DNA of 64,000 bases from Escherichia coli (GTDB taxonomy: Bacteria; Pseudomonadota; Gammaproteobacteria; Enterobacterales; Enterobacteriaceae), in assembly GCF_013122565.1 (NCBI RefSeq), contig NZ_CP053258.1. The stretch is one strand, 5' to 3'. The notes below the pieces were generated by a model that worked only from the letters and a program-made list of their open reading frames with translations, did not search any database and had not been told where the DNA came from. Shown here piece after piece: positions 18,835 through 19,137 of the stretch (position 1 is the first letter of the stretch; each line of letters begins with the position of its first letter). Both the position numbers and the translations under genes were made by a program.

Positions 18835-19137
18835 AGATAAGTCACTTCCTTCCAGGTCATTATTTTAACTGGTTTTTATAACCAGTCTCATTTTATTAAG
18901 AAGGGTAATAACTTGTGCATCTCTTTTGTCGATCTTTGATATTGGCAAAGAAATGCAGCTAAAAAGCTTATACGTTATTTATTTAGAATACACTACGACT
19001 TTTAGATTACCATCATACACATTAAGAATAATCCACGGTAATAAGTGATTAGCATCACAGATTTATCGCGTATATATCATTTTTTTGTGACTTATTTATT
19101 AAAGGAATAAGAAAGGTAATTTGAATTAAAGACAAAG
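18835..19137 (-). promoter_or_regulatory. AT-rich intergenic region, probable promoter region of the OMP/adhesin island
   Basis: A sampled 60-nt line (19021..19080) is about 30% G+C, against about 65% G+C in a sampled repeat line (4381..4440). No credible ORF; A/T tracts throughout. Confidence 0.4.

Follow-up and report, generated by a model that had tools for sequence, protein, structure and literature searches.

The stretch of Escherichia coli DNA analysed here (64 kb in length, hereafter referred to as the window) carries on its minus strand, in this order, ybaT, an AT-rich leader, a TolC-family OMP gene and the 5' part of a SiiEA-type giant adhesin gene; the last two belong to a type I secretion operon that continues with the genes of an ABC transporter and an HlyD adaptor. 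The core gene ybaT (19172..20464, minus strand), which encodes an APC-family permease, lies upstream of the leader (18835..19137, minus strand). The first gene of the operon (17479..18834, minus strand; 52.1% G+C) encodes a TolC-family T1SS OMP of 451 aa and is the ortholog of Z0608/ECs0540/tolC28; its product matched TIGR01844 with 417.6 bits (cut-off 225). It is followed by the 5' part of the gene for a SiiEA-type giant Ca2+-repeat adhesin (1..17376, minus strand), which comprises at least 5,792 stop-free codons and runs off the window, and whose product matched NF047714, "BapA-related adhesin SiiEA", with 501.6 bits (cut-off 425) and contains Ca_tandemer repeats. The ABC and HlyD genes are located beyond the window edge and are known from syntenic genomes: in the complete ones, a gene for a T1SS ABC permease/ATPase is followed by that of the HlyD adaptor, whose stop codon overlaps the start of cueR.

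The locus corresponds to O-island 28 (OI-28) of O157:H7 (Z0608-Z0635, ECs0540-0544), and both synteny and annotation agree with O157 and PapM-32-1. The core genes of the window are ~98.5% identical to those of O157:H7, and the leader is carried by 958 of the 5,426 complete E. coli genomes. The complete ybaT-OMP intergenic region (18835..19171, minus strand, 337 bp), which is the counterpart of the tolC28 (Z0608) upstream region, is 97.9% identical to that of O157 over 337 bp and 99.1% identical to that of PapM-32-1. In O157 the region has the same place between ybaT and the OMP gene and the same operon downstream. The seven substitutions that separate the two 337-bp regions are distributed between the ybaT terminator stretch (four) and the leader (three). 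The giant adhesin gene differs in that it is one unbroken ORF in the window and two genes in O157.

It is important to mention that the leader lies wholly inside a segment that is absent from K-12. Homology to K-12 resumes at position 19144, and a margin of 6 bp separates the leader from the edge of the missing segment. The seemingly "empty" site of K-12 contains the last ~95 bp of the HlyD gene, with a 1-bp deletion; the fusion lies in the terminator loop of ybaT and joins this HlyD remnant to the distal terminator arm. The K-12 site is therefore a deletion scar rather than an empty insertion site, and an identical junction is present in the blood isolate MS14385. Additionally, Escherichia sp. 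E1V33 and E. whittamii both carry the operon immediately after ybaT, with a nucleotide identity to the window of 87-91% for the OMP gene and 88-90% for glsA and ybaT. One old shared deletion thus appears to explain the island-less strains of the K-12/MS14385 type, and the "island" would be the ancestral state. At the locus itself no integrase, tRNA or flanking repeats were found. A search of a plasmid collection gave two matches, and since both were chromosome-sized records and neither was a true plasmid copy, there is no sign of mobility. Judged by these comparisons, the locus is probably not foreign in any recent sense. An earlier reading of this DNA, made from the letters alone (hereafter the sequence-only reading), had spoken of an island gene and of a plausible H-NS or xenogeneic-silencer target, and this xenogeneic premise is weakened by the shared site and flank-like divergence in two Escherichia species and by the deletion scar in K-12.

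Base composition of the leader

The G+C content of 18835-19137 is 29.0%, which is about 4.3 sd below the mean of the 64 kb (54.4%, sd 5.9) and close to the ~30% that had been estimated by hand upstream of the OMP gene; that of the entire ybaT-OMP intergenic region (18835-19171, 337 bp) is 31.8%. When 63,698 overlapping segments of 303 bp were scanned across the 64 kb, the lowest value (28.7%) was obtained for the segment starting at 18833. In 200-bp steps the G+C fraction falls to 0.32, 0.30 and 0.335 in the leader, compared with 0.49-0.52 for the OMP gene and 0.44-0.54 for ybaT. The AT-rich patch is ~340 bp long and lies between genes with 52-53% G+C. The leader contains 36 TpA steps (window mean 12.5, maximum 37) and seven A/T tracts that are 4 nt or longer, a number that places it in the top 3% of windows.

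The same reading had described a sharp compositional break between a leader of about 30% and a repeat gene of about 65% G+C. The break is real by sliding-window G+C, but it is one of 29% versus 52%, because the leader is followed first by the OMP gene, whose G+C content is typical of E. coli, and not one of 29% versus 65%. Moreover, the value of 65% is too high for the giant adhesin gene, whose G+C content averages 60.5% (0.577-0.633 in 1-kb windows, GC3 70.6%, GC2 54%) and reaches 66.5% only in single 200-bp windows. The curvature calculation that had been proposed as a check was also carried out, using an approximate wedge model, and the curvature of the leader was found to be ordinary (19th-81st percentile among 150-bp windows). 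By the same approximate model, curvature in the window peaks in the copA-glsA intergenic region.

The remaining intergenic regions of the 64 kb, with 35.5-51.6% G+C, are also AT-rich, and the leader is the extreme case within a normal intergenic trend rather than a separate sequence class. A comparable drop can be observed at other loci that carry a relative of the OMP gene (in Escherichia, Pseudocitrobacter, Enterobacter, Lelliottia, Budvicia, Rosenbergiella, Trabulsiella and others): at 27 of the 28 loci, the 300 bp upstream have a G+C content of 25-45%, which is 9-24 points below that of the gene, and the sole exception is a Pseudomonas locus.

Elements of the leader and their conservation

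In order to judge the elements of the leader, the sequence of the window was aligned with the leaders of Escherichia sp. E1V33 and E. whittamii. Since the glsA and ybaT genes of these two are only 88-90% identical to those of the window, the alignment can be used as an informative footprint. Long invariant blocks, broken by a variable segment of ~22 nt, were observed in the leader, although the flanking genes differ by 10-12%. The elements are described below in the direction of transcription of the operon, from ybaT to the OMP gene.

The intrinsic terminator of ybaT (19128..19160, minus strand) consists of a stem, GCGCAGTAC/GTACTGCGC (19138-19160), followed by the tail CTTTGTCTTT. Its fold energy is -16.3 kcal/mol (z = -6.95), and the stem is kept in the three Escherichia species. 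Such a strong terminator would end glsA-ybaT transcription and insulate the adhesin operon from it.

An RstA box, TAATTCAAATTACC, is located at 19115..19128 (minus strand; -294 to -281), with a sequence identical to that of the box mapped in O157. Neither E1V33 nor E. whittamii keeps it. With the older RstA consensus, TACATNTNGTTACA, the leader gave nothing above chance, and the RstA box itself matches it poorly. The hexamer ATTACC/GGTAAT, which closes the box, is present in four copies in the leader against 0.18 expected, a number that was reached in none of 500 shuffles.

Downstream of the RstA box, a Pho-box-like sequence, CTTTAATAAATAAGTCAC (19087..19104, minus strand), was predicted, which agrees with CTGTCATAWAWCTGTCAY at 14 of 18 positions. 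The criterion used was an 18-bp site made of two CTGTCAT repeats with an 11-bp period, ending ~10 bp upstream of a -10 element. An equal score was obtained in 2.6% of the shuffles, and the site is kept in both E1V33 and E. whittamii. It is followed by a predicted extended -10-like element, TGATATATA (19071..19079, minus strand), which would imply a transcription start near 19064. The hexamer of this element (TATATA) begins at a distance of 10 nt from the Pho-box-like site, which is the canonical spacing between the Pho box and the -10 element in Pho promoters. The core of the element, GATATATA, does not vary among the three Escherichia species.

A predicted CRP-like palindrome, TGTGATGCTAATCACT, is found at 19044..19059 and matches nine of the ten specified bases of TGTGA-N6-TCACA. 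Only two sites of such quality are present in the 64 kb, and 0.7% of the leader shuffles contain an equal one. In E1V33 and E. whittamii the half-sites are conserved while the spacer becomes TTCT in both. An input from CRP through this predicted site would fit an induction upon glucose exhaustion. Upstream of the orthologous operons of genera beyond Escherichia, the CRP-like and Pho-like sites are absent. Judging from these comparisons, AT-richness is generic to this type of operon and the wiring is lineage-specific.

The promoter predicted in silico with BPROM (PMC12758282) corresponds to 18985..19016 (minus strand), with a -35 element ATGATG at 19011-19016, a 17-nt spacer and a -10 element GTGTATTCT at 18985-18993. 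It sits in a 75-nt block that is near-invariant among the three Escherichia species, and both the RstA box and the BPROM -35 and -10 sequences are identical in the O157 tolC28 upstream region. A further pair of promoter-like hexamers, TGCACA and TAAAAT with an 18-nt spacer, was found by consensus scan closer to the OMP gene (18890..18919, minus strand). The main promoter probably lies elsewhere, as O157 reads TAAAAC at the -10 position of this proximal pair and its leader is nevertheless active. The leader holds three candidate promoters, with predicted starts near 19064 (Pho-type extended -10), 18978 (BPROM) and 18883 (proximal hexamers), between which in silico evidence does not discriminate. 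The promoter prediction suggested by the sequence-only reading was carried out as a consensus scan of the leader, which gave two sites against 2.3 +/- 1.5 in the shuffles; this is what its composition predicts, and there is no enrichment.

The last part of the leader contains a 7-bp palindrome, ACTGGTT/AACCAGT (18868..18886, minus strand), at a distance of 34-52 nt from the ATG. Conservation also extends to the 35 nt that precede this palindrome and to the ribosome-binding region. The Shine-Dalgarno sequence GGAAGGAAG (18845-18853) and the ATG of the OMP gene (18832-18834), which together occupy 18832..18853 on the minus strand, are invariant in the three-species alignment. An RfaH ops element was found neither in the leader nor at the start of the operon, the sole GGCGGTAGnnTG of the window being at 27359, within ushA.

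Taken together, the proposed layout on the minus strand would start with the terminator, continue with the activator sites (the RstA box, the predicted Pho-box-like and extended -10 elements and the predicted CRP-like site), and then lead through the 75-nt block with its in silico promoter to the ribosome-binding site and the ATG.

Regulation of the operon and interpretation of the leader

Experimental evidence on the regulation of this operon comes in its entirety from O157 strains and not from the strain of the window. In O157, a fusion of the tolC28 leader to lacZ is active and dependent on RstA (PMC12758282). RstA is enriched ~6-fold at this leader in ChIP-qPCR, and the shift that it causes in EMSA is abolished upon removal of the box TAATTCAAATTACC, located at about -294 to -280 of tolC28 (PMC12758282). 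According to the same study, the response of the operon to Ca2+ runs through RstA; DMEM supports expression of the operon, which has a part in the adherence to Caco-2 cells in vitro (PMC12758282). Additionally, ecs0540-0544 are activated by PhoB, with a PhoB-regulated promoter in the leader, according to Yoshida 2010 as relayed by PMC3978041 and PMC12846084. In EDL933 grown in LB to an OD600 of 1.5, the log2 expression value of Z0608 was 10.8 in the wild type and 5.0 in an rpoS mutant, which corresponds to a 55-fold dependence on RpoS; under the same conditions the dependence of Z0609 was 20-fold. In Sakai grown in glucose minimal medium, ECs0540/0541 increased by log2 3.5-4.1 from the late exponential to the early stationary phase.

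We therefore read 18835-19137 as the region that controls transcription of an operon of five genes for type I secretion and a giant adhesin (O-island 28/ecs0540-0544), a reading to which we assign a probability of about 0.8. On this reading, the low G+C is that of a long non-coding segment packed with AT-rich promoter and response-regulator elements. The suggestion that the segment carries the promoter of the island is supported by the O157 leader, 97.9% identical, which drives lacZ and binds RstA, and by the position of the segment, flanked by the ybaT terminator and the OMP start codon. The regulatory role of the segment is already known and has been partly dissected in the literature; what is added here are the predicted CRP-like and Pho-type elements, backed by their conservation across species. 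Expression would be low in exponential growth and rise at stationary phase via RpoS, whereas phosphate starvation would induce the operon through PhoB and Ca2+ would do so through RstA. The proposal that the adhesin may be silent under laboratory conditions is contradicted by the expression of the O157 operon in LB stationary phase, in minimal medium and in DMEM. Judging from the O157 data, the operon is conditionally expressed and is clearly on in routine stationary-phase culture. Since early adherence and gut colonisation by EHEC O157:H7 depend in part on the operon (PMC12758282), the timing of its switch-on matters for pathogenesis.

The first alternative is silencing: H-NS, or a different xenogeneic silencer, would nucleate on the AT-rich leader and keep the adhesin operon off until a specific anti-silencing signal arrives; a weaker version of the same reading would have only the exponential-phase sigma-70 transcription repressed by H-NS, with RpoS, PhoB and RstA acting as counter-silencers. 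H-NS prefers AT-rich DNA, many strongly RpoS-dependent promoters are repressed by H-NS, and the leader, with the lowest G+C of the window (29%) and very high TpA, would suit such a role, as would the steep RpoS dependence of the operon (55-fold) and its low expression in the exponential phase. Moreover, further RTX/adhesin operons are under the control of H-NS, as reviewed in PMC12846084. The strong version is nevertheless contradicted by the expression observed in stationary-phase LB cultures, in minimal medium and in DMEM, and the locus is not recently foreign. A literature search for the OI-28 locus gave no statement or data on H-NS, which is not mentioned in PMC12758282. In the EHEC compendium that includes an hns mutant (Im 2022), the OI-28 genes were assigned to modulons 11 and 40, outside the "H-NS modulon", which is a weak negative. 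With respect to the sequence, the best match of the leader to the 10-mer motif TCGATAAATT is 8/10, a value equalled by 63% of the shuffles, the leader has no predicted curvature by the approximate wedge model, and the AT-rich patch of ~340 bp is short compared with the average H-NS-bound region of 1643 bp in O157 Sakai.

G+C content by itself is, moreover, a weak predictor of H-NS binding at a length of ~340 bp, because the acrA-acrR (35.5% G+C in the window) and copA-glsA (39.8%) intergenic regions were scored as unbound in K-12, SE11 and SE15, whereas the hha-maa region (38.6%, within a longer AT-rich tract) was scored as bound (Higashi 2016). The tables of that study, which cover the core regions of K-12, SE11 and SE15, contain nothing on the OI-28 leader. 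H-NS and StpA ChIP-chip data of O157 Sakai (Fukui 2016; ArrayExpress E-TABM-818/819, ~50-bp probe spacing) and RNA-seq data of the EDL933 wild type in LB (SRR2637695/96) and of its hns mutant (SRR2637697/98) are publicly available. On balance, binding of H-NS at the leader is plausible from its composition only, and we hold silencing, in either version, to be possible but somewhat improbable. H-NS may also occupy the leader in addition to the activators and sharpen the RpoS dependence. A more specific proposal, which we consider rather unlikely, is that an ancestral G+C-rich adhesin operon of 25 kb is governed in the manner of a silenced island through a patch of ~340 bp, where H-NS would nucleate and block sigma-70 transcription in growing cells, RpoS, PhoB, RstA and perhaps CRP being counter-silencers rather than classical activators; if true, it would explain the 55-fold RpoS dependence.

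A second alternative is that the low G+C content has no regulatory meaning of its own and reflects the ordinary AT bias of non-coding DNA, made noticeable by the unusual length of the intergenic region and by a neighbouring gene whose amino-acid composition raises its G+C. Each of the intergenic regions measured in the window falls below the coding average (35.5-51.6%), and the orthologous operons of other genera are AT-rich upstream without common motifs. The G+C content of the giant gene can be attributed in part to its Thr/Ala/Val/Gly/Ser-rich repeats, its GC2 being 54% against 40-46% in the neighbouring genes. The leader is, however, 4-10 points below every other intergenic region and contains the single lowest 303-bp stretch of the window. 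Moreover, its long blocks are almost invariant between species, which argues that the leader is under constraint and not drifting. We consider this second alternative rather unlikely.

A function of the leader at the RNA level, as a riboswitch, an sRNA or an attenuator, is very unlikely, and so is a leader peptide encoded within it. Two features invite such a reading, namely the 7-bp palindrome 34-52 nt upstream of the ATG and a 13-nt inverted repeat that pairs the start-codon region (18833-18845) with 19087-19099. A scan of 17200-19400 against Rfam (E <= 1) found no family. As a conserved RNA, the 5'-UTR hairpin at 18868-18886 was rejected (z = -1.57 against shuffles; missing from the minimum-energy fold of E. 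whittamii), as was the long-range repeat, which is not conserved in E1V33 and E. whittamii. The ORFs wholly within the leader are just chance ones of 21-40 aa. Finally, the position of the leader 6 bp inside the K-12-missing segment and the literature name "O-island" might suggest that a mobile genomic island was inserted beside ybaT, with the leader as its scar or attachment junction. This is hardly credible in view of the identical deletion junction with the HlyD gene end in K-12 and MS14385, and of the same site in E1V33 and E. whittamii with an OMP divergence equal to that of glsA and ybaT.

Comparison with other systems

As the control region of a conditionally expressed adhesin operon, the leader can be compared with several known systems. 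Like csgBA, hdeAB and osmY, which are RpoS-selective and H-NS-repressed, the OI-28 operon combines a strong RpoS dependence (in O157) with an AT-rich upstream region; unlike in these genes, no clear sigma-S-type -10 element was recognised in the OI-28 leader.

The tos operon of UPEC, which encodes the RTX adhesin TosA, is regulated by TosR, H-NS and Lrp and begins with regulator/OMP genes. As in the OI-28 operon, its product is a T1SS-secreted repeat adhesin that is poorly expressed in standard exponential culture. The two differ in locus and in adhesin family, and no gene for a PapB-like regulator lies beside the OI-28 leader.

The Salmonella SPI-4 sii operon (SiiE and its T1SS) resembles the OI-28 operon in that it has an AT-rich promoter region, encodes a giant Ig-repeat adhesin and needs specific activators, and the name siiEA was coined by analogy with it. 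Silencing of SPI-4 by H-NS is documented. Compared with SPI-4 sii, the gene order here is OMP, adhesin, ABC and MFP, without siiA or siiB. The composition also differs: the OI-28-type operon has a G+C content of 52-60% except in its leader, whereas SPI-4 is AT-rich as a whole.

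The deletion scar at the ybaT junction

In the window, the boundary at the ybaT junction is at 19143/19144. An identical deletion scar is present in K-12 (L002 2901-3003) and in the blood isolate MS14385 (L036 301-403), and the related segment of O157 is located at L003 10342-10440. The scar contains about 95 bp of the 3' end of the HlyD-family gene, joined within the loop of the ybaT terminator (window 19128-19160), and a run of T residues in this remnant is shortened by 1 bp. Additionally, the O-island 28 copies of E. whittamii and Escherichia sp. E1V33 are syntenic, and their divergence is like that of the flanking regions. 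Together, the scar shared by K-12 and MS14385 and these syntenic, flank-like copies suggest the deletion of an ancestral O-island 28, rather than its acquisition by O157.

In E. coli F5656C1 (L037 1-385), an IS1 transposase gene directly adjoins the 3' end of ybaT, which is a third configuration of this junction.

cueR and the end of the operon

In the operon-positive genomes, the stop codon of the HlyD gene and the start codon of cueR share 4 bp (L003 9938-10345 and 10342-11517 in O157), an overlap that may place cueR on the same transcript as the secretion operon. In K-12 (L002 2497-3028), ybaT lies upstream of cueR and the two genes are not separated by an intact terminator, because the proximal arm of the ybaT terminator has been lost.

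Repeated motifs in the leader and other sites in the window

The 303-bp leader (18835-19137) contains four copies of the hexamer GGTAAT/ATTACC (at 18904, 19006, 19037 and 19115), where 0.18 would be expected, and this number was reached in none of 500 dinucleotide shuffles. The published RstA box has one of these copies at its 3' end, and other Escherichia species retain only two of the four. A 13-nt inverted repeat (18833-18845 with 19087-19099), complementary at 12 of the 13 positions, has one arm in the Pho-box-like site and the other at the start codon and spacer of the OMP gene, and is probably due to chance, because it is conserved in neither E1V33 nor E. whittamii.

As calculated with an approximate wedge model, the most curved stretch of the window is the divergent copA-glsA intergenic region (21451-21650), with an end-to-end/contour ratio of 0.69 versus a mean of 0.96. 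This region is nevertheless listed as unbound by H-NS in K-12, SE11 and SE15 (PMC4720273, S3 Table). A perfect CRP consensus, TGTGATCTTTATCACA, is found at 52384-52399 in the hha-maa intergenic region, which is part of a tract (51143-52477, tomB-hha area) that ranks second in the window for AT content. The RfaH ops element, GGCGGTAGnnTG, has a single match in the window (about 0.1 expected by chance), at 27359 on the minus strand, in the 5' part of ushA.

Integrity of the OMP and adhesin genes

The OMP ortholog of E. whittamii (L009 3001-4272) is split into three ORFs, with lengths of 219, 120 and 103 aa, and probably represents a pseudogene; the leader upstream of it remains well conserved. 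The giant adhesin gene is a single unbroken ORF in the window (1-17376, minus strand; at least 5,792 codons), and that of O157:H7 SS NE 1040-1 (L001 1-18677) is annotated as two genes, a siiEA of 4,386 bp and a 15.7-kb Ig-like gene.
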